From NCBI RefSeq assembly GCF_011045215.1, contig NZ_CP049201.1: a DNA stretch of 64,000 bases; one strand, given 5' to 3'. Within the stretch, counting starts at the first letter, position 1; each line of letters opens with the position of its first letter. The position numbers and the translations under genes are program-made. The notes beneath the pieces were generated by a model, which searched no databases, was not told the origin of the DNA, and saw only the letters and a program-made list of their open reading frames with translations. This stretch comes from Escherichia coli. GTDB taxonomy: Bacteria > Pseudomonadota > Gammaproteobacteria > Enterobacterales > Enterobacteriaceae. Positions 11,260 to 29,832 of the stretch are shown piece after piece.

Positions 11260-12059
11260 AAGATTTCATCACCGAAGCATGGCTAAGAGCGAACCATACG
11301 CTCAGCGAAGGCGCAGAGATCCATCTCCCTGCGGACAGTCGCCTGACGCCCTCTGCCCGGGAGTTACTGGAAAGCCGCCATCTGCGCATCAAGTTTATTG
11401 ACGAGCAGGGCCGCCTGTTTGTTGACGATGAGCAGCAGCAGCCACAGCCCGTTCACGGGCTGACCAGTAGCGATGAACATCCGCAGGCGTGCTGCGAACT
11501 GTGCCGCCAGCCGGTGGCAAAAAAGCCGGATACGCTGACTCATCTGTCGGCGGAAAAAATGGTTGCCAAAAGCGATCCGCGTCTGGGTTTTCGCGCGGTT
11601 CTCGACAGCACCATTGCGCTGGCTGTGTGGCTGCAAATTGAACTGGCGGAACCGTGGCAGCCGTGGCTGGCGGATATCCGTTCGCGTCTTGGCAACATTA
11701 TGCGTGCCGATGCGCTGGGGGAACCGCTGGGCGATCAAGCGATTGTCGGGCTTTCTGACGAAGATCTGCATCGGCTTTCTCACCAGCCGCTGCGCTATCT
11801 CGACCACGATCATCTGGTGCCGGAAGCCAGCCACGGGCGCGATGCTGCGTTGCTCAATCTGCTACGCACCAAAGTGCGGGAAACCGAAACCGTAGCGGCG
11901 CAGGTGTTTATCACCCGCAGCTTTGAAGTATTACGCCCGGACATCTTGCAGGCGCTGAACCGCCTTTCGAGCACGGTCTACGTGATGATGATCCTGAGCG
12001 TAACGAAGCAGCCGCTAACGGTGAAGCAGATCCAACAACGACTGGGGGAAACGCAATGA
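11256..12059 (+). CDS. eutT: Ethanolamine utilisation cobalamin adenosyltransferase EutT
   Basis: 267-aa ORF, 4-nt overlap with eutQ; eut operon synteny. Confidence 0.85.
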
Positions 12060-13072
12060 TTATTGAACGTTGTCGTGAACTGGCGTTGCGAGCGCCCGCC
12101 AGAGTGGTTTTTCCGGATGCGTTAGATCAACGTGTGCTGAAAGCTGCGCAATATTTACATCAACAAGGTCTGGCAACGCCCATTCTGGTCGCCAATCCGT
12201 TTGAACTTCGTCAGTTTGCGCTCAGTCATGGCGTAGCGATGGACGGGCTACAGGTTATTGATCCGCATGGCAACCTCGCAATGCGGGAAGAATTTGCTCA
12301 TCGCTGGCTGGCCCGCGCGGGCGAAAAAACGCCGCCGGATGCGCTGGAAAAACTTACCGATCCGCTGATGTTCGCCGCCGCAATGGTCAGCGCCGGTAAA
12401 GCGGATGTCTGTATCGCGGGCAACCTCTCTTCCACGGCGAATGTGCTGCGTGCCGGATTACGCATTATCGGCTTGCAGCCAGGCTGTAAAACGCTCTCAT
12501 CCATTTTCCTGATGCTGCCACAGTACAGCGGTCCGGCGTTGGGCTTTGCCGATTGCAGCGTGGTACCACAGCCGACGGCGGCGCAGCTGGCGGATATCGC
12601 GCTTGCCAGCGCCGAAACCTGGCGCGCCATCACCGGAGAAGAGCCGCGCGTGGCGATGCTGTCGTTTTCCAGTAACGGTAGCGCCCGTCACCCCTGCGTT
12701 GCCAATGTCCAGCAGGCGACAGAAATCGTCCGTGAGCGCGCACCAAAGCTGGTAGTCGATGGCGAGTTGCAGTTTGACGCCGCCTTCGTGCCGGAAGTGG
12801 CGGCGCAAAAAGCGCCTGCCAGCCCGCTACAGGGCAAGGCCAATGTGATGGTTTTTCCGTCGCTGGAAGCCGGAAATATTGGCTACAAAATCGCACAACG
12901 ACTCGGCGGATATCGTGCCGTCGGGCCATTGATACAAGGACTTGCCGCGCCGATGCACGATCTCTCTCGTGGTTGTAGCGTGCAGGAAATTATCGAGCTG
13001 GCGCTGGTGGCAGCTGTGCCGCGTCAGACAGAAGTAAACCGTGAAAGCAGTTTACAAACACTGGTTGAATGA
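12056..13072 (+). CDS. eutD: Phosphotransacetylase EutD
   Basis: 338-aa PTA-family ORF, 4-nt overlap with eutT; eut operon synteny. Confidence 0.85.
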
Positions 13073-13110
13073 ACGGTCCCGTTCTGGACCCTGATAAAGA
13101 GGAAAGCACA

Positions 13111-13404
13111 ATGGAAGCATTAGGAATGATCGAAACCCGGGGCCTGGTTGCACTGATTGAGGCTTCTGACGCGATGGTGAAAGCTGCGCGCGTCAAGCTG
13201 GTTGGTGTTAAGCAGATTGGCGGCGGCCTGTGTACTGCCATGGTTCGTGGTGATGTTGCAGCCTGTAAAGCGGCGACCGATGCCGGTGCCGCAGCGGCAC
13301 AGCGTATCGGCGAGCTGGTATCTGTACACGTTATCCCGCGTCCGCACGGCGACCTGGAAGAAGTGTTCCCGATCGGCCTGAAAGGCGATAGCAGCAACCT
13401 GTAA
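13111..13404 (+). CDS. eutM: Major BMC shell protein EutM
   Basis: 97-aa product from internal ATG ([26 protein letters not shown]...); canonical BMC-H domain. Confidence 0.9.
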
Positions 13405-13510
13405 TCACCCTGTGTGACGTCGATTCGGGCGTCACGCTCTCTCATTTTTCATTTTACCTTCCGCGGAGGGTAGGGGGAGCTTTTACCTGAAATACGCCAC
13501 GGAGGCGGGT

Positions 13511-13798
13511 ATGAAACTGGCAGTCGTCACTGGACAAATTGTTTGTACCGTACGCCATCACGGACTGGCGCATGACAAATTGCTGATGGTGGAAATGATT
13601 GATCCACAAGGTAATCCTGACGGGCAATGCGCCGTCGCCATCGACAATATTGGCGCGGGAACCGGGGAGTGGGTGTTACTGGTGAGTGGCAGTTCCGCCC
13701 GCCAGGCGCATAAAAGCGAAACGTCACCGGTCGATCTGTGCGTGATTGGCATTGTCGATGAGGTGGTGTCTGGCGGTCAGGTAATTTTCCACAAATAA
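13511..13798 (+). CDS. eutN: BMC vertex (pentamer) protein EutN
   Basis: 95-aa ORF MKLAVVTGQIVCTVRH...; EutN/CcmL family. Confidence 0.9.
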   Translation: MKLAVVTGQIVCTVRHHGLAHDKLLMVEMIDPQGNPDGQCAVAIDNIGAGTGEWVLLVSGSSARQAHKSETSPVDLCVIGIVDEVVSGGQVIFHK

Positions 13799-13809
13799 GG
13801 CAGAACATC

Positions 13810-15213
13810 ATGAATCAACAGGATATTGAACAGGTGGTGAAAGCGGTACTGCTGAAAATGCAAAGCAGTGACACGCCGCCCGCCGCCGTTCATGAGATGG
13901 GCGTTTTCGCGTCCCTGGATGACGCTGTTGCGGCAGCCAAAATTGCCCAGCAAGGGTTAAAGAGCGTGGCAATGCGCCAGTTAGCCATTGCTGCCATTCG
14001 TGAAGCAGGCGAAAAACACGCCAGAGATTTAGCGGAACTTGCCGTCAGTGAAACCGGCATGGGTCGCGTTGAAGATAAATTTGCCAAAAACGTCGCTCAG
14101 GCACGCGGCACGCCAGGCGTTGAGTGTCTCTCTCCGCAAGTGCTGACGGGCGACAACGGCCTGACTTTAATTGAAAACGCGCCATGGGGCGTGGTGGCTT
14201 CGGTGACGCCGTCCACTAACCCGGCGGCAACCGTAATTAATAACGCCATCAGCCTGATTGCCGCGGGCAACAGCGTCATTTTTGCCCCGCATCCGGCGGC
14301 GAAAAAAGTCTCCCAGCGGGCGATCACGCTGCTCAACCAGGCGATTGTTGCCGCAGGCGGGCCGGAAAACTTACTGGTTACTGTGGCAAATCCGGATATC
14401 GAAACCGCGCAACGCTTGTTCAAGTTTCCGGGTATCGGCATGCTGGTGGTGACCGGCGGCGAAGCGGTAGTAGAAGCGGCGCGTAAACACACCAATAAAC
14501 GTCTGATTGCCGCAGGCGCTGGCAACCCGCCGGTAGTGGTGGATGAAACCGCTGACCTCGCCCGTGCTGCTCAGTCCATCGTCAAAGGCGCGTCTTTCGA
14601 TAACAACATCATTTGTGCCGACGAAAAGGTACTGATTGTTGTTGATAGCGTAGCCGATGAACTGATGCGTCTGATGGAAGGCCAGCACGCGGTGAAACTG
14701 ACCGCAGAACAGGCGCAGCAGCTGCAACCGGTGTTGCTGAAAAATATCGACGAGCGCGGAAAAGGCACCGTCAGCCGTGACTGGGTTGGTCGCGACGCAG
14801 GCAAAATCGCGGCGGCAATCGGCCTTAAAGTTCCGCAAGAAACGCGCCTGCTGTTTGTGGAAACCACCGCAGAACATCCGTTTGCCGTGACTGAACTGAT
14901 GATGCCGGTGTTGCCCGTCGTGCGCGTCGCCAACGTGGCGGATGCCATTGCGCTAGCGGTGAAACTGGAAGGCGGTTGCCACCACACGGCGGCAATGCAC
15001 TCGCGCAACATCGAAAACATGAACCAGATGGCGAATGCTATTGATACCAGCATTTTCGTTAAGAACGGACCGTGCATTGCCGGGCTGGGGCTGGGCGGGG
15101 AAGGCTGGACCACCATGACCATCACCACGCCAACCGGTGAAGGGGTAACCAGCGCGCGTACGTTTGTCCGTCTGCGTCGCTGTGTATTAGTCGATGCGTT
15201 TCGCATTGTTTAA
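13810..15213 (+). CDS. eutE: Acetaldehyde dehydrogenase (CoA-acylating) EutE
   Basis: 467-aa aldehyde dehydrogenase family ORF in eut operon. Confidence 0.9.
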   Translation: MNQQDIEQVVKAVLLKMQSSDTPPAAVHEMGVFASLDDAVAAAKIAQQGLKSVAMRQLAIAAIREAGEKHARDLAELAVSETGMGRVEDKFAKNVAQARGTPGVECLSPQVLTGDNGLTLIENAPWGVVASVTPSTNPAATVINNAISLIAAGNSVIFAPHPAAKKVSQRAITLLNQAIVAAGGPENLLVTVANPDIETAQRLFKFPGIGMLVVTGGEAVVEAARKHTNKRLIAAGAGNPPVVVDETADLARAAQSIVKGASFDNNIICADEKVLIVVDSVADELMRLMEGQHAVKLTAEQAQQLQPVLLKNIDERGKGTVSRDWVGRDAGKIAAAIGLKVPQETRLLFVETTAEHPFAVTELMMPVLPVVRVANVADAIALAVKLEGGCHHTAAMHSRNIENMNQMANAIDTSIFVKNGPCIAGLGLGGEGWTTMTITTPTGEGVTSARTFVRLRRCVLVDAFRIV

Positions 15214-17237: not shown

Positions 17238-17420
17238 ATGCCGGATGCGACGCTTGCCGCGTCTTATCCGGCCTACGGGATTGCACATGTAGAGCGGATA
17301 AAGCGTTCACGCCGCATCCGCCAGTGGCGCGGTGCAATTGCCGGATGCGACGCTTGCCGCGTCTTATCCGGCCTACGGGATTGCACATGTAGTGCGGATA
17401 AGGCTTCACGCCGCATCCGC
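17238..17420. repeat. BIME/REP cluster (two near-identical ~85-bp units)
   Basis: Unit gccggatgcgacgcttgccgcgtcttatccggcctacgggattgcacatgtag...gcggataa..cacgccgcatccgc present twice between eutG and eutH. Confidence 0.7.
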
Positions 17421-17452
17421 TAATAAATAACAACTAACAGGGAGTAAAGGCG

Positions 17453-20079: not shown

Positions 20080-20172
20080 ATACTGTAGTTATCAGGCGTG
20101 GCGCTGGGTTGCGGGGTGTTAGTGGGATTATATCCGGCTGTGTATCCGGTCGGGGTGATTGGTCTGTATAGC

Positions 20173-20194
20173 AAAACCCGGCGCGGGGCCGGGT
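20173..20194 (-). terminator. Intrinsic terminator (minus-strand orientation)
   Basis: On minus strand reads ACCCGGCCCCGCGCCGGGTTTT: GC stem CCCGGC/GCCGGG followed by U-run, 7 nt after stop of the 20201-20761 gene; identical copy at 21822-21843. Confidence 0.6.
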
Positions 20195-20200
20195 GAACTA

Positions 20201-20761
20201 TCATTCAGGGAACAAGTTGATTTGAAGCAAACTGCCAATGTATTTACCAGTGCTTTTAATTTTTCGCTTTGATGGCTTACACGAATTCAGGTTGACACCA
20301 GCCTGGCTAGATATTGGCTTGTATTGCCGCTCCGCCAGTACGATCAGGTCTGCCGCGTCTTTTAGCTTTCCATCGTTAGCCAGTTCCAATGCTCGATCCG
20401 CCATTTGCCCGCATTGTTGAATCAGCTTAAGTTGCGATACCTCCAGTCGCAATTGCTGGATTCGTTCTACCACTTTCGCCCTAATGCGCTTAGTTTCACG
20501 CATTCCCATTCTTAATGCCTGGTTGCCAGTAAGTGAGTAAACCTCTTTTTCTTTCCTGAAGTTTGCGGCTTTACCGTCAGCTTGGACGCGCATTTTATGC
20601 GCTTCCAAGAATTCGCCCTCCAATTCATCCCTGATCTTCGCGTTGAATCTGTCGTTCTTGAGTTCATTTAACCCTTCCGCCTTGCGGATCTGGTTGATTA
20701 ACTCCAACAATTCATCACTGCGGATACGCCACTCGCTATCAACCTGTACCAAGTCAAACAT
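20201..20761 (-). CDS. Hypothetical phage protein (186 aa from ATG with GGGAG RBS; coiled-coil, possibly regulatory)
   Basis: ORF with good RBS upstream of internal ATG at 20761 (track start 20854 is TTG); no confidently recognised domain. Confidence 0.55.
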   Translation of the reverse strand: MFDLVQVDSEWRIRSDELLELINQIRKAEGLNELKNDRFNAKIRDELEGEFLEAHKMRVQADGKAANFRKEKEVYSLTGNQALRMGMRETKRIRAKVVERIQQLRLEVSQLKLIQQCGQMADRALELANDGKLKDAADLIVLAERQYKPISSQAGVNLNSCKPSKRKIKSTGKYIGSLLQINLFPE

Positions 20762-20924
20762 GTTGTTGCTCCCGTTTTGCTGCCATAGGGCAACGGCTCG
20801 CCAGCCTTTATCACCTCCTTTAGTTGTTGCGATTCTTAACTGAATGGTTATCAAAACGCTGCGTTAATATCATTGATATGTATCAAATTTGTTTTGTGAC
20901 GCGACAATGCCTTGTGAATATCAA

Positions 20925-20949
20925 TAAAAAACCCAGCGCTATGGCTGGG
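20925..20949 (-). terminator. Intrinsic terminator (minus-strand orientation)
   Basis: Minus strand CCCAGCcatagcGCTGGG followed by UUUUUU, 45 nt downstream of stop of 20995-21723 gene. Confidence 0.5.
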
Positions 20950-20994
20950 CTTCTCTTGATGGCTGGTTTTGTAGCTAATCGTTGGCTTTAAGGG

Positions 20995-21723
20995 TTAAGC
21001 AACAATATTAATCCCGCTCCTTGTCGCTGCCTCTTTGGCAATTTTCCCCTCGTCCTCCAGTTTAGCTAACGCCTTGTACATCCAGTGGCGGCCCGGTGCG
21101 CCATGCAGCTTGCCATCTTTGCCGATCTTACCGAACGCATGTAACGCCAAATCGTCGATAGTCCCCTTGTATCCGCCTTGCTCCTTAAGCCATTGCTCAA
21201 GCTGTTCTACTTTGAATTTTGCCGGACGTCCGCCAGCCGCTTTTTGTTGTTTAGCTGGTTCTTCTGCAATATCGCTTTTGTTGTTTAAGTCCGTCATGAC
21301 TGGTTCTCCTACAATAGCGTCGCCCTTGGTCTCGATTTGTTGATTAACTGGTTTGTCTACAATATCGATTTTGTTGTTTAGCTGGTTTTTCAACATATCA
21401 ATCTCAGCCTTTAGCGCCTCGTTTTCTCTGGCTAGTTCTTCGCAACGCTTGATAAATTTTTGTTCCATGCCGTCCGGGCTATCAACGTGCGCCGTACCCA
21501 TTACGATCTTCCCGTTGCTATCGAAGATGACAGCTTGCCAACCGACTGCGGCGAGCATTTTAAACACATCATCAGCGGTCTTGTTTGTTGTATCGCGACG
21601 CCCTTTAAACTTGTGGCTAGCAGCGCCTTTGCCTTTGAAGCCCATTGCCTCAGCGACATCTTGCCGCGTCATCTTGCGAGCGCGCTTGTTCATGCCTAAC
21701 TCAACCCAATCCATGTATTCCAT
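20995..21723 (-). CDS. Hypothetical phage protein with internal tandem peptide repeats (242 aa)
   Basis: ORF with GAGGT RBS; DNA and protein contain imperfect tandem repeats (LNNKIDIVDKPVNQQ / LNNKSDIAEEPAKQQ); basic N-terminal region possibly DNA-binding. Confidence 0.6.
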   Translation of the reverse strand: MEYMDWVELGMNKRARKMTRQDVAEAMGFKGKGAASHKFKGRRDTTNKTADDVFKMLAAVGWQAVIFDSNGKIVMGTAHVDSPDGMEQKFIKRCEELARENEALKAEIDMLKNQLNNKIDIVDKPVNQQIETKGDAIVGEPVMTDLNNKSDIAEEPAKQQKAAGGRPAKFKVEQLEQWLKEQGGYKGTIDDLALHAFGKIGKDGKLHGAPGRHWMYKALAKLEDEGKIAKEAATRSGINIVA

Positions 21724-21821
21724 ACATTACCTCATTTTGTCGCTAAACGTTTTGCTTTCTAATTTATCAACAAAAAAGCGGGTGATGGTAGCCGCTTTGA
21801 TGGGGAAGTTGACAGGGATCA

Positions 21822-21843
21822 AAAACCCGGCGCGGGGCCGGGT
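21822..21843 (-). terminator. Intrinsic terminator (minus-strand orientation), identical copy of 20173-20194
   Basis: Same 22-bp sequence aaaacccggcgcggggccgggt; 18 nt downstream of stop of AlpA-like gene 21861-22091. Confidence 0.6.
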
Positions 21844-21860
21844 ATTAGCAAGTTAGATGA

Positions 21861-22091
21861 TTACTGGGTATCGCTGTCAGAAAGTAGTCCAATTGATTTA
21901 AAGAATTTCATCACATCCTGATAGCGATACATGACGCCCCGCCCGGTTCCCAGCACATCAACAGGGTCGGGGAATGGAGTTCCGTTCTGTTCCCATTTCT
22001 TACGCCACGAATAAAACGTTCCCCTGCTAATTCCGCCCAGCATCCGGCAGATGGCAGGGCGGCTAAGAAGGATTACTTCATTTTTATCCAT
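21861..22091 (-). CDS. AlpA-family phage transcriptional regulator / excisionase-like HTH protein (76 aa)
   Basis: Motif LSRPAICRMLGGISRGTFYSWRKK...FPDPV typical of AlpA/Xis-type HTH; GGGAGA RBS. Confidence 0.6.
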   Translation of the reverse strand: MDKNEVILLSRPAICRMLGGISRGTFYSWRKKWEQNGTPFPDPVDVLGTGRGVMYRYQDVMKFFKSIGLLSDSDTQ

Positions 22092-22110
22092 TGTTTAATC
22101 TCCCGTGTGT

Positions 22111-22299
22111 TTATTTTGCGTAGATTAAGGCAAATGCTCTTTTGGCTTTGCTTAGTTCGTATTCGCGTTTTTCTATGATTGCCATCAGTTCTTGTGCGGT
22201 GGCTGGCACGCCCGCTCTTATCAGCGCAATCTTAGTATCCATAGCGCACACTCTTTCACGCACCATATCGAAGATAATTTCCGCTCTATCGTGTTTCAT
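22111..22299 (-). CDS. Small hypothetical protein (62 aa)
   Basis: ORF with strong GAGGTGA RBS 5 nt upstream of ATG; 19 bp upstream of AlpA-like gene, likely co-transcribed. Confidence 0.5.
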   Translation of the reverse strand: MKHDRAEIIFDMVRERVCAMDTKIALIRAGVPATAQELMAIIEKREYELSKAKRAFALIYAK

Positions 22300-22648
22300 G
22301 ATTTCACCTCATATTTGTTGCTAAACCTTGTAAACCCTTGTTTGACTACAAAATACACCTGGTTAAGCGACTGATAAAATGATTTAGGTCAATTTATTGG
22401 TTGATGATTTATGTCTGATTGGATTTGTCTACAAATGGCAGGTTAGTCAACAAATGATGAAACCAGGGAATGGCGGTTATAATGTCAGCGGGGATTGTGA
22501 GAAAGGCCCGGGTAGGTTGCTAACTGCCTGGGCCTTTATTTTTGGCGCGTGTACGTGAAATCTGGAAAATTTGCAGGGTAGTTGTTGAGGGATTTTTCGC
22601 GTAGGAGCGTGAAGGGTCCGCCAGTCATCGCCCTGACGTAGCGGTGAA

Positions 22649-23050
22649 TTACTTGCGAGGCTCACCCATCGGCCAGGCACCTTCATTGCGACGATAACCA
22701 ATCCGGTACTCTTCCGGCAGCGGCAAGCCCTGCTCACGATATGGACGCAGATCGAAGCCAAAAACAGGATCGTCGTCGTAGGCGAGGAATAGCCCGGCAG
22801 GCTCTGCCACGCGTTCGATAATCAGTTCCCCATCTTCAACGAAGAAGATCAGATTATCGCGAAAGTCCGTTACCTCACTGACGTGATAACATTCGGCATG
22901 TGCGTCCAGCCAGGCTTCTCGGTATTCCTGAATCTCGGCTTCTGACCATGTTGAAACAGGACGCTCCCAAATTCCCAGGCTGGATTTGCCCTGGCGGGAG
23001 AATAATTTTGCCTCTTTGCTCTGCTCTGGTTTTCTGTTTAAAAAGCTCAT
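22649..23050 (-). CDS. Hypothetical protein (133 aa)
   Basis: ORF with AAGGAGAA RBS; no recognised domain. Confidence 0.55.
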   Translation of the reverse strand: MSFLNRKPEQSKEAKLFSRQGKSSLGIWERPVSTWSEAEIQEYREAWLDAHAECYHVSEVTDFRDNLIFFVEDGELIIERVAEPAGLFLAYDDDPVFGFDLRPYREQGLPLPEEYRIGYRRNEGAWPMGEPRK

Positions 23051-23186
23051 TATTCTTCTCCTTTGAACGGATTGTTCTTGCTCTCTAATAACTTAGCGCG
23101 ACCCAGTAACGTCCGGGCAAGCGCCTCCGCCTTCCTTAGCCTAAGCCCTGCGTCTTCTGCGTCCAGATCTACATTCCTGATAGCCT

Positions 23187-23450
23187 CTACAGCCTGCTCC
23201 GCTGCGTCCGGGCGTGAATCCACTTAAATATGCCGATATGCTCACGAAAGTCTGGATGCTCATATTGCCAGCGGCAGATTGTTCTGAAGCTCGGCATGTC
23301 AGGCATGTTGCCAATCTCTCTGAGACTATGGCCTTCAGCTACCAGCAAGCAGATTTCTTCAGCGATAGCGACCCCATACTTAGCGCTTTTTCTGCTTAAA
23401 CTTGTGACATCAACAGGTAAGTTATTGATTTCTTTATCATCACCCTTCAT
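23187..23450 (-). CDS. Small HTH protein resembling the DNA-binding domain of phage terminase small subunits (87 aa)
   Basis: Motif AEGHSLREIGNMPDMPSFRTICRWQYEHPDFRE resembles TerS-type HTH; GGGGGTAA RBS; family assignment is from memory and tentative. Confidence 0.4.
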   Translation of the reverse strand: MKGDDKEINNLPVDVTSLSRKSAKYGVAIAEEICLLVAEGHSLREIGNMPDMPSFRTICRWQYEHPDFREHIGIFKWIHARTQRSRL

Positions 23451-23525
23451 AATTACCCCCGAATTGATAGCGAATTGATAGCGAATTACCCCGAATTACC
23501 CCCGAATTACCCCCGAATCACCATC
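23451..23525. repeat. Tandem array of about 6.5 copies of an 11-bp unit (AATTACCCC(C)G x4 and AATTGATAGCG x2)
   Basis: Directly visible: aattaccccc g aattgatagc g aattgatagc g aattacccc g aattaccccc g aattaccccc g aatcaccatc, exactly filling the gap between the 93-aa gene stop and the 87-aa gene start. Confidence 0.85.
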
Positions 23526-23527
23526 AT

Positions 23528-23809
23528 TTAACCCTCGCCTACGTCTGCGTCGATGCTTGCTAACTGGCTGTGTAGATCGCGTTCAATCATTTTTACCTTT
23601 TTCACAAAATCCCTTTCCTCGGCGGTGGCGGGCGCGCCCTGGGCTATGTTTTTCGTGAGGTCGTGGAAAGTGCCGAAAACATAAAGGGAGAACAGCCTTA
23701 ATTGTTGCCGCTTCATTGGCAAATCACTGTTGCTATGTTTGATCTCAGCGACGCCTTTCGAAATAACACGGGCCATCCCATGACAAATTCTTAACGTAAG
23801 CGCAGACAT
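23528..23809 (-). CDS. Hypothetical protein (93 aa)
   Basis: ORF with GGGGAG RBS; no recognised domain. Confidence 0.5.
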   Translation of the reverse strand: MSALTLRICHGMARVISKGVAEIKHSNSDLPMKRQQLRLFSLYVFGTFHDLTKNIAQGAPATAEERDFVKKVKMIERDLHSQLASIDADVGEG

Positions 23810-23930
23810 GATATTTACTCCCCGACTGGTATAATGAACGTGGTTTTAAACGTTGCTATTTGCTAACCATTTAATCTGTTAACTCAATTTCGCATTGTTG
23901 GCCCGGCACGAACACCGGGCTTTTCTTTAC

Positions 23931-24272
23931 CTATTCGAAATAGCTTCCAATATCCGGTGTCCGGGTATCAGTTTTCCGGGTCGGCTCGAAGTACGATTCC
24001 AGATCCGGCGTTTTCGGCCCACGCTGGGCGTTGGCGGCGGGTTGCTTTTCTTCTGGCTGTTCCGGCTGTTTACTACCAAATCGGCGCTCCAGTTGGTCCA
24101 TCAGCACTACCATCATTTCCTGGACCAGCTTTTCATCGGCTTTATCAAGGTTCTCCAATACCATCGCCATCCCTTTGCGGAATTTAAGCTCAGCGTCGTC
24201 CGGTTCCGGTGCTGATTCGTTTGCTTTAACTGCCAGGGCGATCCGGCGTTTTGCTTCATCCAAAAAATTCAT
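23931..24272 (-). CDS. Hypothetical acidic protein ending in repeated SYFE motif (113 aa)
   Basis: ORF with GGGGGAA RBS overlapping stop of upstream gene; C-terminus ...DLESYFEPTRKTDTRTPDIGSYFE. Confidence 0.5.
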   Translation of the reverse strand: MNFLDEAKRRIALAVKANESAPEPDDAELKFRKGMAMVLENLDKADEKLVQEMMVVLMDQLERRFGSKQPEQPEEKQPAANAQRGPKTPDLESYFEPTRKTDTRTPDIGSYFE

Positions 24273-24277
24273 TTTGT

Positions 24278-24721
24278 TTATTCCCCCATGTGGAAATAGT
24301 CATCTAAGCGGCGATTAAACTCGTCGCTGCCATCGAAATATTCACGGATACTTTTATTGACCAGATCATCACCGTCGAAATACTGGCGCGTGAAATCGTC
24401 CAATTCCCCATCGAAGTATTGACGTGTGAAATCGTCTAATTCCCCTTCAAAATATTGACGCGCATCAGGCGCTCTGTTTGGCGCTGTAGCAATCTCAGAT
24501 TGATTGCCCTGTAACTTATCGACGTTTGCTAAATACACGCCCAGTGAGCTGTTTGTTCCCATTACCGCAAGCATTTTCCGGCGATCTGCCATGTTCGGCG
24601 CGAGCGATGATAATTGAGCTTTAATTTTGTCCACTTCCTGATTAACAATACGGTCAATCAGTGGTTGATTCGTGCGAATAATTTCCTGTGCCAACTGGCG
24701 AATATATTCTTTGCGTGTCAT
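24278..24721 (-). CDS. Hypothetical protein with C-terminal tandem RQYF(D/E)GELDDFT repeats (147 aa)
   Basis: ORF with GGAGAT RBS; encoded by about 3.5 tandem 36-bp DNA repeats near 24330-24465. Confidence 0.55.
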   Translation of the reverse strand: MTRKEYIRQLAQEIIRTNQPLIDRIVNQEVDKIKAQLSSLAPNMADRRKMLAVMGTNSSLGVYLANVDKLQGNQSEIATAPNRAPDARQYFEGELDDFTRQYFDGELDDFTRQYFDGDDLVNKSIREYFDGSDEFNRRLDDYFHMGE

Positions 24722-24739
24722 TTCTTATCTCCGTTCATC

Positions 24740-25123
24740 TCATTTCTGTAAAAAACCCATACCGTGGCCCAGGCGATTTGAAATTTTCCCGGCAAGCATC
24801 CGGCGAATATGTTTTTCGTTGATGATGTCGTGAGTGACCGGATCTTCACCTTTCATACATTCCGGCATCTGGTCAAACAATACGGAAGCGCCTTCATCAA
24901 TAATCTCAGTTAAGACTGCTGGCAGCATATTAATGATGCGTTCTGCTTCGTCGTTCATTGCTTTATCGAACGCTTTTTTATCCATTGCTTCGGCGGATGG
25001 TTTGTAATTGTCGCCAGTCAGGTTAAGGTAAGTGTTGTTTGGGTGATACATGGCATTCACTCCTTTTACTTTGATTGTTGCGATTTCTTTGTTTTTGTTA
25101 ATTGTGGTGCCTTTGACTTTCAT
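24740..25123 (-). CDS. Hypothetical protein (127 aa)
   Basis: ATG overlaps stop of HNH gene (ATGA), suggesting translational coupling; no recognised domain. Confidence 0.5.
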   Translation of the reverse strand: MKVKGTTINKNKEIATIKVKGVNAMYHPNNTYLNLTGDNYKPSAEAMDKKAFDKAMNDEAERIINMLPAVLTEIIDEGASVLFDQMPECMKGEDPVTHDIINEKHIRRMLAGKISNRLGHGMGFLQK

Positions 25124-25539
25124 GCTGCTTCTTCCTTCAATAATTGTGGCAATTTGCCTGTTAGTTCGATTTCTTCATTAATAGATGCAAGTAACTGTCT
25201 CAGTTTGCGATGTAATAGCTGGTGACGCTCTCTCGGCATTTTTACCAGGTTGCTTAAGCGGTTATTCTGCGGATCGTAGTCCCGGTGATGGATATCATAT
25301 TTTCGCTCATCGTAAACACCGTAGCACCATAACCAGGCAGCCTTTTCTATTGTCATGCAGGTACGTTTTCCGTTGCTTAAACAAATGGTTATACTCAGGT
25401 GACCGCGATGTTTTTCGTTTAAGCTGCCTTTAATTACCTGGCCTGTGCTGCGGTTGTGAAATAAACCAGTTTCAGGGTCGTAGTGATATTTCTGTCGTAA
25501 TATATCAACTGATAACCGTAGTCTTGTAAGATTGTCCAT
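25120..25539 (-). CDS. HNH homing-type endonuclease (139 aa)
   Basis: Motif YDIHHRDYDPQNNRLSNLVKMPRERHQ (HH...N...N...H) typical of phage HNH nucleases; GAGGTAG RBS. Confidence 0.7.
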   Translation of the reverse strand: MDNLTRLRLSVDILRQKYHYDPETGLFHNRSTGQVIKGSLNEKHRGHLSITICLSNGKRTCMTIEKAAWLWCYGVYDERKYDIHHRDYDPQNNRLSNLVKMPRERHQLLHRKLRQLLASINEEIELTGKLPQLLKEEAA

Positions 25540-25571
25540 GATGTTCTACCTCAATGTGATTGCTGTGTTAA

Positions 25572-25757
25572 TTATCTTTCTTCTTGTGGCCTATTCAGCC
25601 AGGCCTCGATCTCGCTACGCCAGAATAATAAACGACAATTTCGCGGCGTAAATGGTTGGGGTATTGTCTTATCTTTTAATAGCCATCTTCGAATCGTTCT
25701 TGTTGATACCCCCGCTATTAATGCGAAAGCTCGCAGATCTATAACTTCATCTCTCAT
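25572..25757 (-). CDS. AlpA-like HTH regulator (61 aa from ATG with GAGGT RBS)
   Basis: Sequence LIAGVSTRTIRRWLLKDKTIPQPF...WRSEIEAWL matches AlpA/Xis-type HTH pattern; track ORF start 25862 is a TTG extension. Confidence 0.55.
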   Translation of the reverse strand: MRDEVIDLRAFALIAGVSTRTIRRWLLKDKTIPQPFTPRNCRLLFWRSEIEAWLNRPQEER

Positions 25758-26537
25758 GTTCTTACCTCGATTAAAAAGGACCGCCCCCAGGGAAAGAAGA
25801 AAGAGGAAAGAGGAAAGAGGAAAAACTTCCTGGAGGCGGGTAATTCGGATTCCTTGAATCAATATCCCATGTGATACTTAATATTATAAAGGGCGGCGGG
25901 CTATGTCGCTATTTTTGCCATAGTGTGACACCATTAATTTATTAACAAAAAGTGCTATTTATTAAATCTTTTTTCGGCAGGTGCAAGAAAAATAATTGCG
26001 ACACGGTAGGGTAGCGGGCGATAATAATCATGTAAGGAGTAGCCACCTTACGCCTCCAAATGTGATCGATAAAAATAATAGTCTCAATTCTTTCTCCCGC
26101 TTCTCGGCGGTTTTTTTGCCTGCAATCACACATCAAAAAAACACATCGAATTGATATGCCTTTAAAACGCAATATAACGCATTTTGACGGCCTTAATTTT
26201 TGCCTATCCACTCGGAAGCGTAAGCCTGTTTTGATTCGTCTGGCGTGGAATGGTGCGGCGGTAATATCAGATCTCAGCGTTCTGTGTGGTGGGATGGAAT
26301 AGCCTGGCAGGATCTGCGTGTGATTTCATTCATCCAACCTTGGATGAATGGTCCGATCTGGTCAGTAGTCCGGCACAAATAAAAAGCGCCTGCGGGCGTA
26401 GCAGACGCTTTGTGTACAGGCTTATCAGTACGGGATGTGCACGAATGATTATACCACCCTCAGAAAAACGTTTGCTTTTGCACTTAAACGGATAAGTGGT
26501 ATTTCTTGGTCTTCATTGGTTTTAGCTCACCATAGGC

Positions 26538-26765
26538 TCATTTAGGTGCGCCCCTGTCGATAATTCGGTACATGTTCTCGGTATATCTCCCGTTAATCAC
26601 CGTTCTGGTAACAACAATCACACCGTTTTCCTCCAGAAAGGCAATGGCCCGCTTCACTCCCTGGCGGCTTACACCGGATAGCTGCGCCAGCCTGTCAATG
26701 GAGATGTTGTATTTGTCCGGCTGGCTTGTCAGGATCTGGAATACCGCTCGTGCTGTTTTCGTCAT
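26538..26765 (-). CDS. Small winged-helix DNA-binding protein (75 aa), candidate regulator
   Basis: Sequence ISIDRLAQLSGVSRQGVKRAIAFLEENGVIV has HTH character; divergent from the plus-strand cassette; RBS weak. Confidence 0.45.
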   Translation of the reverse strand: MTKTARAVFQILTSQPDKYNISIDRLAQLSGVSRQGVKRAIAFLEENGVIVVTRTVINGRYTENMYRIIDRGAPK

Positions 26766-27037
26766 GGCAAAAACTCATTGAAATTGGATACCCTTAGAAC
26801 GCTCTCAAACGCTCCGTAATGCGATGAGAATTTTACCTAAGCAAGTGTAGCTCTTTATTAGTTTTATGATGCCGTAGGCCGATAGAAGGTGCGCTCTCTG
26901 AAGTTTCATTGTCTATCAGTGGTGGGTAATGCTGCCTTTACTATTGGCGTCAAGAAAATCACTGGTGTAGATTGGGCGAATAGTTTACTATTCAAACAAG
27001 GCACAATGGCCTTAGCGGATTGATGTCAGGAGATACC

Positions 27038-27385
27038 ATGTCAAAAATAGTTACTTTGTTTGCGACTAAGCGAGAAGGGAAATCCCTTTCTGTGCGCACT
27101 CGTAAGCCAAAAGCTATGACTGGCTTGCGTAAAACAAATCGTCTGACGCATCTTGACGCGTTAGCGTATCGACTAGGATACCAGTTGGTGCGCGGTAAAA
27201 GTGTCATGTTTCGCTACACTGCTACTCTCGATCACGAAGAAAACAAAGTGATGAATGCGGCCTCGCCTATGGCTGTACCACGAGTAAAAAAAATGACGTT
27301 CACACAAGCGTGTGATTTATCAAAAGATTTATTCGATTCACGAGAAGAACGCTTAAAGAGTGTAAGCTTTGATGGTCCAGAATGA
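27038..27385 (+). CDS. Basic 115-aa protein, candidate partner (antitoxin or regulator) of downstream YafO-like gene
   Basis: ATG at 27038 preceded by AGGAGA RBS; stop overlaps start of next gene by 14 nt; basic N-terminus and acidic C-terminus; no recognised family. Confidence 0.5.
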   Translation: MSKIVTLFATKREGKSLSVRTRKPKAMTGLRKTNRLTHLDALAYRLGYQLVRGKSVMFRYTATLDHEENKVMNAASPMAVPRVKKMTFTQACDLSKDLFDSREERLKSVSFDGPE

Positions 27386-27887
27386 ATTTATTGGTAAGGT
27401 CTACAGTGATAACAAGTTTAAAACAAACGATGAATTAAAGAGCTTTAAGGATTCGTTTATTTATCATTGGAGATATGGACATCATCCTGATTTTGGAAAG
27501 GATACTCTTTTCCATAAACCCCCGTGTGTATATCCTATCCATTTACGTAAAGTCCATGTAAATATTGGTCTTTATACCAATCAGTACGGCTATAGCGGGA
27601 CAGAACAATGCTGGGATGACTGGTCTACTGGTCGTTATGGTCCCGGTGGTTTCGAAAAAGTTACCCCTACATCTGATGCTTATCTTATATACGCTGTATG
27701 TAAAAATAGAAATGCTGGCGTGTTAGACTTCTGGTTTCCTCCCGCACACAAAAACGCTGAGTTCGAATCCTCTGTACAGTTTGTGGCTGAGATGGCTGAT
27801 AAGTTTTATGAGTCTATCAAGGCGGACCCGATGCCGCGCGATCAGAATCCTTGGCATACGGGGTATATAGTTAAAAAACCAGCCTGA
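27372..27887 (+). CDS. YafO-family toxin-like protein (171 aa)
   Basis: Motifs F-I-Y-H-W-R-Y-G...PDFGKDTLF, YPIHLRKVHVN and SDAYLIYAV line up with recalled YafO motifs (FISYKRDG...PDIFGRDALY, ERVAHIHLAN, DEAHLVYCQG); similarity judged from memory, not computed. Confidence 0.45.
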   Translation: MVQNEFIGKVYSDNKFKTNDELKSFKDSFIYHWRYGHHPDFGKDTLFHKPPCVYPIHLRKVHVNIGLYTNQYGYSGTEQCWDDWSTGRYGPGGFEKVTPTSDAYLIYAVCKNRNAGVLDFWFPPAHKNAEFESSVQFVAEMADKFYESIKADPMPRDQNPWHTGYIVKKPA

Positions 27888-28438
27888 TCCACGCAATACT
27901 GATTGTTTTTGGCCTTGTATGGTGTGGTCTGATTTGAGGCAAAATTATTTAATCCCTTAAAAAACTAACTTCAAAAGACTAAAACCAGGGGGATGGTCCC
28001 TCTCGCTCCGCTCCAGGTACCATCCCTGTCGGGATGGGTTTATTGTAGAGTTAAAATTAATTACTCACATCGTCACACCTTGCGAAAGTTTTGCTCAATT
28101 ATCATTCAAACATAGCACAAAAAATATTCGATTTAGTTAGTGTGCACTGACTTTTTTATCAATTTACTTTCATTCGAAAGTCATGGGTTAAATATTAATC
28201 ATCTGGCTGTGGCACGCATGGATTCACCGAGGGTATTTTGGACCATTTGGTCAAAATTCATAAGTACATGATTTCATGGTGATTTATTTTTCTGTATCTT
28301 GCTTTCATTCGAAAGTGGAAACGAAGAATTGGCAATTTATTGATTCAGATCATTGACATTGCATATTTGTGGCGGTTGTCACGGTTGTTTTTTGAGCGCT
28401 TCAACCGTCGATATTGAGTATAAACCCGGCCTTATAGT

Positions 28439-29644
28439 TCACGGTTCAAGTGGATTACCGTCACCAGCCAATATTGAATCAATAGCGTCGGCGTAATCCT
28501 GCATCATTGCTCGCCGTTGCTTCAGGTAGGCCGCCTGGTTATAAACGCCGCGCACACCTTTCGGGACGTGGGCCAATTGGATTTCGATCCAGTCTGGTGA
28601 GTATCTGCCAGACTCATTAAGCGCCGTTGAAAAGGTGGTCCGCCAGCCATGACCAGTGGCAATGGATTTATAGCCGATCCTCTCAAGCGCCTTCAGTATC
28701 GCGCTGGCTGAAAGTGGCTTATCCATGAATCGACCAGGGAAGACGAAAGCACTGTATCCGCTCCTTGTAAACTGGTCCTGTAATAGCTCCACCGCCTGCC
28801 GTGATAGCGGGACCACATGCGGGCGGCGGGCCTTCATGACTTCAGCGGGCAATGTGATTGTTGCGTCCTCCAGGTTTATCCATTCCCAACGGCACAAACG
28901 CAGTTCTGCGGTCCTTAATGCCGTTAATATAAGCAAACGTATTGCCGTCTGAATCTGGACGCTCCCGGCCCTCTCAAGGGCTTTGTAGAAGGCCGGAATT
29001 TCACTAATCGGTATCCACGCGTTGTGACCAGGTCGGCGGGCCTTCAGTGCCGTATCAAGATCTGCAACCGGATTCCTCGTTACCAGTTCGGTGATAACGG
29101 CAAACTTGAAGATCTCACCGATGCGCTGGCGTAGCTTGCGGGCCTGCTCCGGTGCGGTACGTTCTTTCTTCTGGAGTAATGCCAGCACGTCACGGGCGGT
29201 TATATCGACAATCGACCGCTTGCCAAGTACCGGATAGACGTCTTTTTCTAGGGCCGATCTGACCTGTTTTGCATAGGATTCCGACCACCCTCCAACCCTA
29301 GTAGCAAACCAGTCTTCCGCCACCTTCTTAAATCCTGCCGCCATGTTGAGCGCATCAATGGCTTTTTCCTTGCGGGCTTGTTCCACTGGGTTAATTCCAT
29401 TGGCAATAAGGGATCTGCTCTCCGTGGCGCGCCTGCGTGCTTCTTTGAGTGTGATTAGCGGGTAAACACCAATAGCCTGCAAAAACTCTCGTTTATTCAA
29501 CCAATACCTGAATCGCCAGTATTTCGAACCGTTGGGATGCACCAGCAAAAACAGCCCCGGCGTCAGTGAATCGGTGAGTTTATAGGGCTTGTCCTGCGGC
29601 TGTGCGGCGTCTATGGCCTTTGCTGTGAGTGGTGTCTTGCTCAA
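28439..29644 (-). CDS. intZ: Tyrosine-type site-specific integrase (prophage integrase)
   Basis: 401-aa ORF with phage integrase features (N-terminal arm-binding domain, C-terminal catalytic region with ...HGWRTT...); sits at the element end beside eutB as intZ does in E. coli K-12; start appears to be TTG. Confidence 0.8.
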   Translation of the reverse strand: MSKTPLTAKAIDAAQPQDKPYKLTDSLTPGLFLLVHPNGSKYWRFRYWLNKREFLQAIGVYPLITLKEARRRATESRSLIANGINPVEQARKEKAIDALNMAAGFKKVAEDWFATRVGGWSESYAKQVRSALEKDVYPVLGKRSIVDITARDVLALLQKKERTAPEQARKLRQRIGEIFKFAVITELVTRNPVADLDTALKARRPGHNAWIPISEIPAFYKALERAGSVQIQTAIRLLILTALRTAELRLCRWEWINLEDATITLPAEVMKARRPHVVPLSRQAVELLQDQFTRSGYSAFVFPGRFMDKPLSASAILKALERIGYKSIATGHGWRTTFSTALNESGRYSPDWIEIQLAHVPKGVRGVYNQAAYLKQRRAMMQDYADAIDSILAGDGNPLEP

Positions 29645-29832
29645 AACCGGATACCTTGATTTAACGACTGGATAACCCCGATCATGTATCCGGCGCGTTC
29701 GGTTGCGTTCGGCAGGATAAGTAACGGGCGTATTAAGTGGAACACCTTACAGGACAAGGGCTAACGATGAAATAGAATTGTTTGCAGGCTGTGAGAAATG
29801 TTAATCGTCACTTCTTCCTGAGGGAACGACTT

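Follow-up and report, generated by a model that had tools for sequence, protein, structure and literature searches.

Conserved single-copy stem-loops between eutM and eutN in the Escherichia coli eut operon and their replacement by REP elements in other lineages

The 106-nt spacer between eutM and eutN in the eut operon of Escherichia coli, which is without annotation in genomes, contains two abutting RNA stem-loops (HP1 and HP2) followed by a 30-nt block. The hairpins form a conserved structure under purifying selection, occur once per genome, and are replaced in other lineages by REP repeats. The spacer module is tentatively interpreted here as a set of intercistronic protective or weakly attenuating stem-loops (probability about 0.42); for HP1-HP2 we infer activity both as an exonuclease barrier and in attenuation. 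This reading and the rivals discussed below are not mutually exclusive.

The eut microcompartment serves as a model organelle linked to virulence and as a chassis for synthetic biology, and how one 17-gene operon yields shell and vertex protein at ~100:1 is not settled. A conserved and selected RNA module lying exactly at the eutM/eutN boundary offers a concrete experimental handle on this question, and it is relevant to the cloning of eutSMNLK cassettes, whether native spacers are included or not. In addition, the exchange of unique hairpins for REP/BIME repeats at one site between sister genera provides a natural experiment on REP function, which bears on the long debate over whether REPs are stabilisers, attenuators, or both. 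No paper describing the eutM-eutN spacer was found in the literature searched, which did not cover the text of Kofoid 1999.

Structure and conservation of the eutM-eutN spacer

The window (the whole stretch of 64,000 nucleotides that was analysed) covers the eut operon of E. coli, with eutQ, eutT, eutD, eutM, eutN, eutE, and eutJ in this order (Table 1). The majority of the junctions in the operon overlap or measure at most 12 nt, the exceptions being eutD-eutM (38 nt), eutM-eutN, and eutG-eutH (99 nt in strain PE164 and 215 nt in the window). The eutG-eutH junction, the other long gap in the operon, is occupied by REP/BIME. In the window this gap (17238-17452) holds a BIME with four REP units that arose as a tandem duplication of a ~100-nt unit, PE164 having the 99-nt single version; the window has REP motifs at 17240-17420 as well as in other places. 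An island of ~9.7 kb (20080-29781) splits the operon between eutA and eutB, at the junction where K-12 has CPZ-55.

Table 1. Positions of genes, RNA features, and island proteins in the window
Feature	Position	Strand	Description
eutD	12056-13072		
Small hairpin, eutD-eutM spacer	13075-13090	+	GGUCC-CGUUCU-GGACC; 2 nt 3′ of the eutD stop, ~20 nt before the eutM AUG
eutM	13111-13404	+	97 aa, major hexameric shell protein (ORF list; RefSeq annotation of a 99.9% identical E. coli locus)
eutM stop codon	13402-13404		TAA
HP1	13412-13437	+	10-pair stem including G-U pairs, 6 of 10 G-C; 6-nt loop GAUUCG
HP2	13436-13480	+	Two-tier stem-loop, abuts HP1
HP2 lower stem	13436-13443 with 13473-13480		
HP2 internal loop	13444-13454		One-sided, 11 nt, AUUUUUCAUUU
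HP2 upper stem	13455-13461 with 13466-13472		
HP2 tetraloop	13462-13465		CGCG
3′ block	13481-13510	+	UUUUACCUGAAAUACGCCACGGAGGCGGGU; U4 run abutting HP2, A/U-rich stretch, eutN Shine-Dalgarno
eutN Shine-Dalgarno	13501-13505		GGAGG, 5 nt before AUG
eutN	13511-13798	+	95 aa, pentameric vertex protein
eutE	13810-15213		
Island HNH protein	25120-25539	-	
Island YafO-toxin-like ORF	27369-27887		Weak, below Pfam cutoff; annotated as YafO-family toxin in strain PE164
Island tyrosine integrase	28439-29644	-	

HP1 starts 7-9 nt 3′ of the eutM stop and is built on a core of 8 bp, GUGACGUC/GGCGUCAC (13414-13421 with 13428-13435), which is extended to 10 bp in Escherichia. Its inverted-repeat pattern matches once in the 64-kb window, versus 0.01 matches expected by chance. 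In HP2, the 5′ arm consists of CUCUCUC and ACCUUCC and is paired with GGAGGGUAGGGGGAGC; that is, GCUCUCUC (13436-13443) and ACCUUCC (13455-13461) pair with GGAGGGU-AGGGGGAGC (13466-13480). The segment 13437-13455 reads CTCTCTCATTTTTCATTTT, and HP2 is followed by UUUUACCU, with an invariant UUUUA abutting the hairpin. Folding energies are -17.4 kcal/mol for HP1 alone (z -3.5), -19.3 for HP2 (z -3.5), and -33.1 for the two together (z -4.2), and none of 200 shuffles matched the stability of the pair; the minimum-free-energy fold of the whole spacer reaches -41.9 kcal/mol (z -2.7). The hairpin arms GTGACG (13414-13419) and CGTCAC (13430-13435), a U-rich run, and CCGCGG (13461-13466), to which the first-pass annotation had drawn attention, are all present. 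The CCGCGG palindrome proved to be the apex of HP2 and, because K-12 differs at 13462, to be allele-specific, K-12 and most E. coli having CTGCGG there.

The pairing is well preserved among relatives. In an alignment of 17 sequences from Escherichia, Citrobacter, and Klebsiella spallanzanii, 97.5% of pair cells are paired, as compared with 48-65% for slid controls; for HP2 the value is 98%, with compensatory changes at 3 pairs. The covariation score was not reached by any shuffle, a control that overstates support for related sequences. Across 7 genera the HP1 core stem either is unchanged or carries compensating changes (one pair being U-G, C-G, or U-A and another going from G-C to A-U), and its loop ranges among genera from 4 to 22 nt without sequence conservation. 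This near-invariance of the HP1 stem over large distances suggests that something more specific than any stable hairpin may be maintained.

Purifying selection on HP1-HP2 is evident from comparison with four-fold-degenerate sites of eutM, eutN, and eutE. Between E. coli and Citrobacter the spacer is 78-84% identical, versus 52-57% at such sites, and between E. coli and other Escherichia species 98% versus 82-83%. For the HP1-HP2 block itself, 55 of 66 positions are identical to C. werkmanii, against 174 of 319 four-fold sites (p = 6e-6), and Fisher p values run from 6e-6 to 0.055 across comparisons. The stems are 83-93% identical to those of freundii-type Citrobacter (C. werkmanii, MGH106) and 73-89% identical to those of Citrobacter R56 and K. 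spallanzanii; the HP1 loop varies in length and is 25-50% identical in its alignable columns. Conservation of the spacer above four-fold sites indicates that the element is functional in the lineages that keep HP1-HP2.

Several other identities for the element were considered and rejected. A known RNA family was ruled out by a search of positions 12000-15000 with the Rfam 15 covariance models, which gave no match on either strand up to E = 10. A small ORF within the spacer (GTG at 13414, 19 codons) is without a Shine-Dalgarno sequence and is disrupted in relatives by loop indels whose length is not divisible by three. A DNA-binding palindrome is contradicted by half-site spacing of 4 to 22 nt between species, unlike a fixed dimer site.

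With regard to the origin of HP2, an 8-nt direct repeat, TTTTACCT, at 13452-13459 and 13481-13488 flanks 21 nt corresponding to the 3′ half of the hairpin, and in Buttiauxella sp. A111 HP1 is followed directly by CUUCUUUUACCUGA. Judging from these two arrangements, HP2 may have originated by a short insertion or duplication.

Distribution within E. coli and across genera

Of 5426 complete E. coli genomes, 5406 have a match to the eutM-eutN stretch (95-100% identity), and 5406 likewise carry the spacer, at one place per genome and with at least 90% identity. A repeated or mobile element is thereby ruled out, the spacer being single-copy per genome and in the window. It has neither the REP consensus (of the GCCGGATG...CTTATCCGGCCTAC type) nor the many dispersed copies per genome of REPs. 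The window carries the O157:H7-type allele; the sampled alleles of K-12 BW25113 and SCU-115 differ from it at 13444 and 13462 (for K-12, A/C and C/T, respectively), each of which is unpaired in the fold model. An IS911 flanked by a TTT target duplication interrupts the spacer of E. coli strain 90-1 (locus L052, 2501-3860) immediately 3′ of HP2 (equivalent to 13483/13484 of the window). This insertion parts the hairpins from the eutN initiation region and thus makes the strain a natural mutant.

A scan of species-representative genomes with EutN yielded 48 loci, and eutM directly precedes eutN in 42. The spacer of all 42 is 52-211 nt long and strongly folded, and its content falls into four types. 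Spacers with HP1 and HP2 occur at 18 loci (Escherichia, the C. freundii complex, and K. spallanzanii) and spacers with HP1 only at 6 (Yokenella, Buttiauxella, and Entomohabitans), so that 24 of 42 are of HP1 type. REP/BIME spacers occupy 14 of the 42 loci (Salmonella, the K. pneumoniae and K. oxytoca groups, C. koseri/amalonaticus/sedlakii, Pseudocitrobacter, and Pluralibacter), where the repeats begin at the same position, a few nt 3′ of the eutM stop. Other G+C-rich structures are found at 4 loci (Intestinirhabdus, Pseudomonas, and two Rhodocyclaceae). HP1 and REP are found together at no locus. K. spallanzanii, which belongs to the K. oxytoca complex, has the HP1-HP2 spacer, and its EutM shares 98% identity with the E. 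coli protein; REPs are found in its relatives. These sequence features hint at recombination or transfer of its eut region.

The annotations of S. Typhi CT18 and Ty2 fuse eutM and eutN into a single ORF of 690 bp that runs through the REP-bearing spacer, in which other Salmonella genomes have a stop codon (PMC3548604). The Salmonella loci compared here were L026 and L034. A joining of EutM to EutN by read-through or frameshifting was rejected, in-frame stops being present and the frame offset varying (0, 1, or 2) among species; in E. coli the two genes lie in different frames and such stops occur. A general rule of a hairpin after the major shell gene was likewise ruled out by the pdu operon, which has no structured gaps: pduA overlaps pduB, and pduJ-pduK and pduM-pduN are separated by 23 and 3 nt. 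Since there is no gap after pduA, the hairpin is not a general microcompartment feature.

It is hardly credible that the spacer is functionless filler, a relic hairpin in a gap that tolerates insertions, REP and IS elements among them. The spacer has indeed received REPs and an IS911, gap content turns over between genera, and a REP in the spacer could be a mere sign of a permissive gap. However, filler does not account for conservation far above that of four-fold-degenerate sites, for loops that drift while stems persist, or for the retention of the spacer throughout nearly all E. coli genomes.

A further conserved hairpin lies in the eutD-eutM spacer (Table 1). At -7.7 kcal/mol it is thermodynamically not unusual; it is near-invariant in Enterobacteriaceae loci, with the exception of Buttiauxella, and the same place is taken by GGUC-GUAA-GACC in Rhodocyclaceae and by CCC-GCAA-GGG in Pseudomonas. 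Together with the eutM-eutN hairpins, it provides eutM with conserved hairpins on either side, and it may be a 5′ partner of the eutM-eutN module.

RNA and protein levels across the eutM-eutN boundary

The only absolute RNA values located for the operon are from AIEC strain LF82, as gene-level RPKM with bile salts as inducer and modest induction (PMC6379400). Uninduced and induced values, respectively, are 108 and 357 for eutD, 55 and 177 for eutM, 5 and 62 for eutN, 14 and 149 for eutE, 13 and 147 for eutJ, 35 and 168 for eutG, and 106 and 514 for eutH; induced eutB is at 358 (PMC6379400). Accordingly, eutM exceeds eutN 3-11 fold, induced eutM is above neither the operon average nor eutD, eutH, and eutB, and the eutM/eutE ratio moves from 3.9, a value based on very low uninduced counts, to 1.2 on induction (PMC6379400). 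There is thus an RNA boundary at the spacer in LF82 that is strong without induction; with induction, eutN alone is depressed and the downstream genes recover. The first-pass annotation had expected eutM mRNA to be raised over the downstream genes and had named an RNA-seq step across the junction as a check. The published data bear this out for eutN, but eutE, eutJ, and eutG rebound when induced and the step is not sustained. It was also reported that fold-changes in EDL933 are uniform across the junction. Uninduced K-12 Term-seq, in which the operon is silent, lists no sense-strand 3′ end at the spacer.

The K-12 Term-seq data (Adams 2021 supplement) also contain a low-abundance antisense RNA 3′ end at ~13334-13393 on the - strand, opposite the 3′ part of eutM. 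It implies an antisense transcript over that part of the gene, which may originate within the spacer or past it; a convincing promoter for it was not found on the - strand.

The first-pass annotation had taken HP1 and the U-tract for a partial terminator. Partial intrinsic termination, with release after HP1 and a pyrimidine/U-rich tail or after HP2 and UUUU, would lower all downstream genes, and we regard it as a less likely rival that is still in contention. HP1 has the G+C-rich stem-loop of intrinsic terminators (about 5-14 bp) and ranks third among terminator-like matches within 19 kb, under a loose criterion that returned 38 sites versus 24 ± 5 in shuffles. The 8 nt directly 3′ of its stem (UCUCUCAU) contain no U run, and U5 starts only 8 nt downstream, so HP1 barely passes this permissive scan, and only at a window offset of 2. 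The U-tract therefore exists, but it is the internal loop of HP2 and does not adjoin HP1. Release after HP2 could use the invariant UUUUA directly 3′ of it, but a lateral loop of 11 nt is unusual in terminator hairpins. Among relatives, Buttiauxella HP1 carries a U-rich tail (UUUCUUUAAC or CUUCUUUUACC) immediately 3′, as in a true terminator, while Yokenella keeps HP1 without any U tail. A conserved RNA structure, this U-tailed form, and the excess of eutM over eutN RNA in LF82 are what stand of the terminator claim. The RNA levels divide in the same way: the uninduced fall from eutD and eutM to eutN, eutE, and eutJ would suit termination, but the induced levels of eutE, eutJ, and eutG come close to that of eutM, and downstream proteins are still abundant. 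The recovery downstream is a poor fit to simple termination and fits better with a locally unstable, poorly translated eutN segment that has a protective structure at its boundary.

We consider a Rho-dependent or ribosome-gated attenuator very improbable. In the Rho version, the G-poor, CU-rich run at 13437-13462 would be a short Rho loading site hidden by HP2; in the ribosome-gated version, a ribosome at the eutM stop would cover the 5′ arm of HP1, and only untranslated transcripts would be attenuated. Gating would agree with the start of HP1 5-9 nt past the stop in every HP1-type species in which it could be measured, and with the LF82 shift in eutM/eutE ratio, although that shift is based on very low uninduced counts. 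The invariant CUCUCUC...UUUU and the partial Rho dependence reported for REPs would agree with Rho, but the C-rich stretch measures only ~27 nt and is paired in the stable fold.

According to the favoured interpretation as protective stem-loops, endonucleases would attack the thinly translated eutN segment, and 3′-to-5′ exonucleases would then halt at HP2 and HP1, with the result that the eutS-to-eutM part of the polycistronic mRNA would outlive the eutN segment. HP1-HP2 may also slightly attenuate read-through, as REP325 does, and the REP/BIME repeats of Salmonella, Klebsiella, and several Citrobacter would do an equivalent job at the same spot. Points against this interpretation are the LF82 values, with induced eutM below eutD, eutH, and eutB and only 1.2 times eutE, the uneven stabilisation of mRNA by REPs, the permissive-gap account of REP presence, and the near-invariance of the HP1 stem sequence.

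At the protein level, proteomics of W3110 gave EutQ 100, EutM 96, EutL 39, EutB 37, EutE 27, EutC 24, EutS 11, EutD 10, and EutN 1, so that EutM:EutN is ~100:1 in protein versus ~3:1 in RNA under induction. The proposal in the first-pass annotation that the hairpin sets shell-to-enzyme stoichiometry is not supported, since proteins already differ ~10-fold upstream of it and EutE, EutB, and EutL, at 27-39, are encoded downstream. Stoichiometry of the Eut proteins is therefore set mostly by translation rather than by the hairpin. As noted in a Salmonella study, earlier transcriptomes had eut shell genes expressed above cargo genes and pdu genes expressed uniformly, which is in line with the favoured interpretation.

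The 30-nt block 3′ of HP2 is the eutN translation-initiation region and represents a separate constraint. Comparison of E. coli with Citrobacter or K. spallanzanii gives 93-97% identity for the block, versus 52-62% at four-fold-degenerate sites (Fisher p from 2e-7 to 2e-4), which makes it the most conserved part of the spacer, and its UACCUGAA is also found in the Buttiauxella and Entomohabitans spacers. Two candidate tertiary or long-range contacts of this region were set aside. A helix between ACCC and GGGU that would close the spacer over the eutN Shine-Dalgarno sequence is 69% paired, no better than slid controls. A 5-bp pseudoknot of UUUCA (13447-13451) with UGAAA (13488-13492) is always pairable, with one-sided transitions only and an invariant 3′ side, and is kept as an idea.

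A translational insulator or operator for eutN is a minority reading, about as doubtful as partial termination. On this account the spacer would uncouple eutN from the heavy ribosome traffic of eutM, and the 3′ block, perhaps with HP2, would set a very low rate of EutN synthesis, possibly via a trans-acting factor. The gap between the protein and RNA ratios speaks for it, as do the tightness of most other operon junctions, the conservation of the 3′ block, and two GGA-containing motifs, CGCGGAGGG and CACGGAGGC, 36 nt apart. The energy needed to open the eutN initiation region, 14.7 kcal/mol against 8.3 for eutM, points in the same direction, but it is no outlier beside eutJ (16.3) and eutG (13.9). 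Furthermore, the long-range occluding helix is not conserved, the loop-to-tail pseudoknot shows one-sided changes only, pduN follows pduM after just 3 nt, and no link of CsrA or an sRNA to eutN was found in the literature. Distance alone would be enough to uncouple translation, which leaves selection on the HP1 and HP2 stems unexplained.

A more far-reaching version, which appears quite unlikely, is that HP1, HP2, and the 30-nt block form a dedicated riboregulator of EutN supply. It would act either through a hairpin gated by the ribosome at the eutM stop or as an operator bound by a trans-acting protein or sRNA, the latter with the GGA motifs 36 nt apart and a possible loop-to-tail pseudoknot. 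If so, shell-facet synthesis would be coupled to shell closure, which would set the number or size of microcompartments, and the near-invariance of the HP1 stem would reflect sequence-specific recognition and not mere stability.

Comparison with known systems

HP1-HP2 resembles intrinsic terminators and leaky attenuators in that a pyrimidine/U-rich stretch comes after a G+C-rich stem-loop, with UUUU at HP2 and a canonical-looking form in Buttiauxella. It differs from them in the absence of a U run within 8 nt of E. coli HP1 and in the large lateral loop of HP2, and in the published gene-level RNA-seq, RNA of the downstream genes does not undergo a sustained fall.

With regard to REPs, it was reported that they shield upstream mRNA and partly terminate transcription, REP325 in yjdMN being a dual stabiliser and attenuator (bioRxiv 10.64898/2026.03.23.713779); mRNA stabilisation by REPs is not uniform, and their termination was reported to be partly Rho-dependent. 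REP/BIME repeats take the identical position 3′ of eutM in sister genera and also fill the eutG-eutH gap of the window. On the other hand, HP1 and HP2 are without the REP consensus, single-copy, and vertically conserved, not dispersed.

Selective RNA processing and stabilisation, or differential decay, is known from malE-malF (Dar & Sorek 2018, PMC5927463). Such decay widely reshapes E. coli operons, and the protective hairpins are stable, conserved, and without a U-tract (PMC5927463). The eutM-eutN element differs from the malE-malF type in comprising two abutting hairpins in a true spacer, most E. coli examples lying inside the downstream coding sequence. Both are found in polycistronic operons whose products are needed in unequal amounts, and HP1-HP2, like the malE-malF-type stem-loops, is a stable structure conserved in related species, located just 3′ of the more abundant cistron, at the boundary of the favoured gene, and without an adjacent canonical U-tract.
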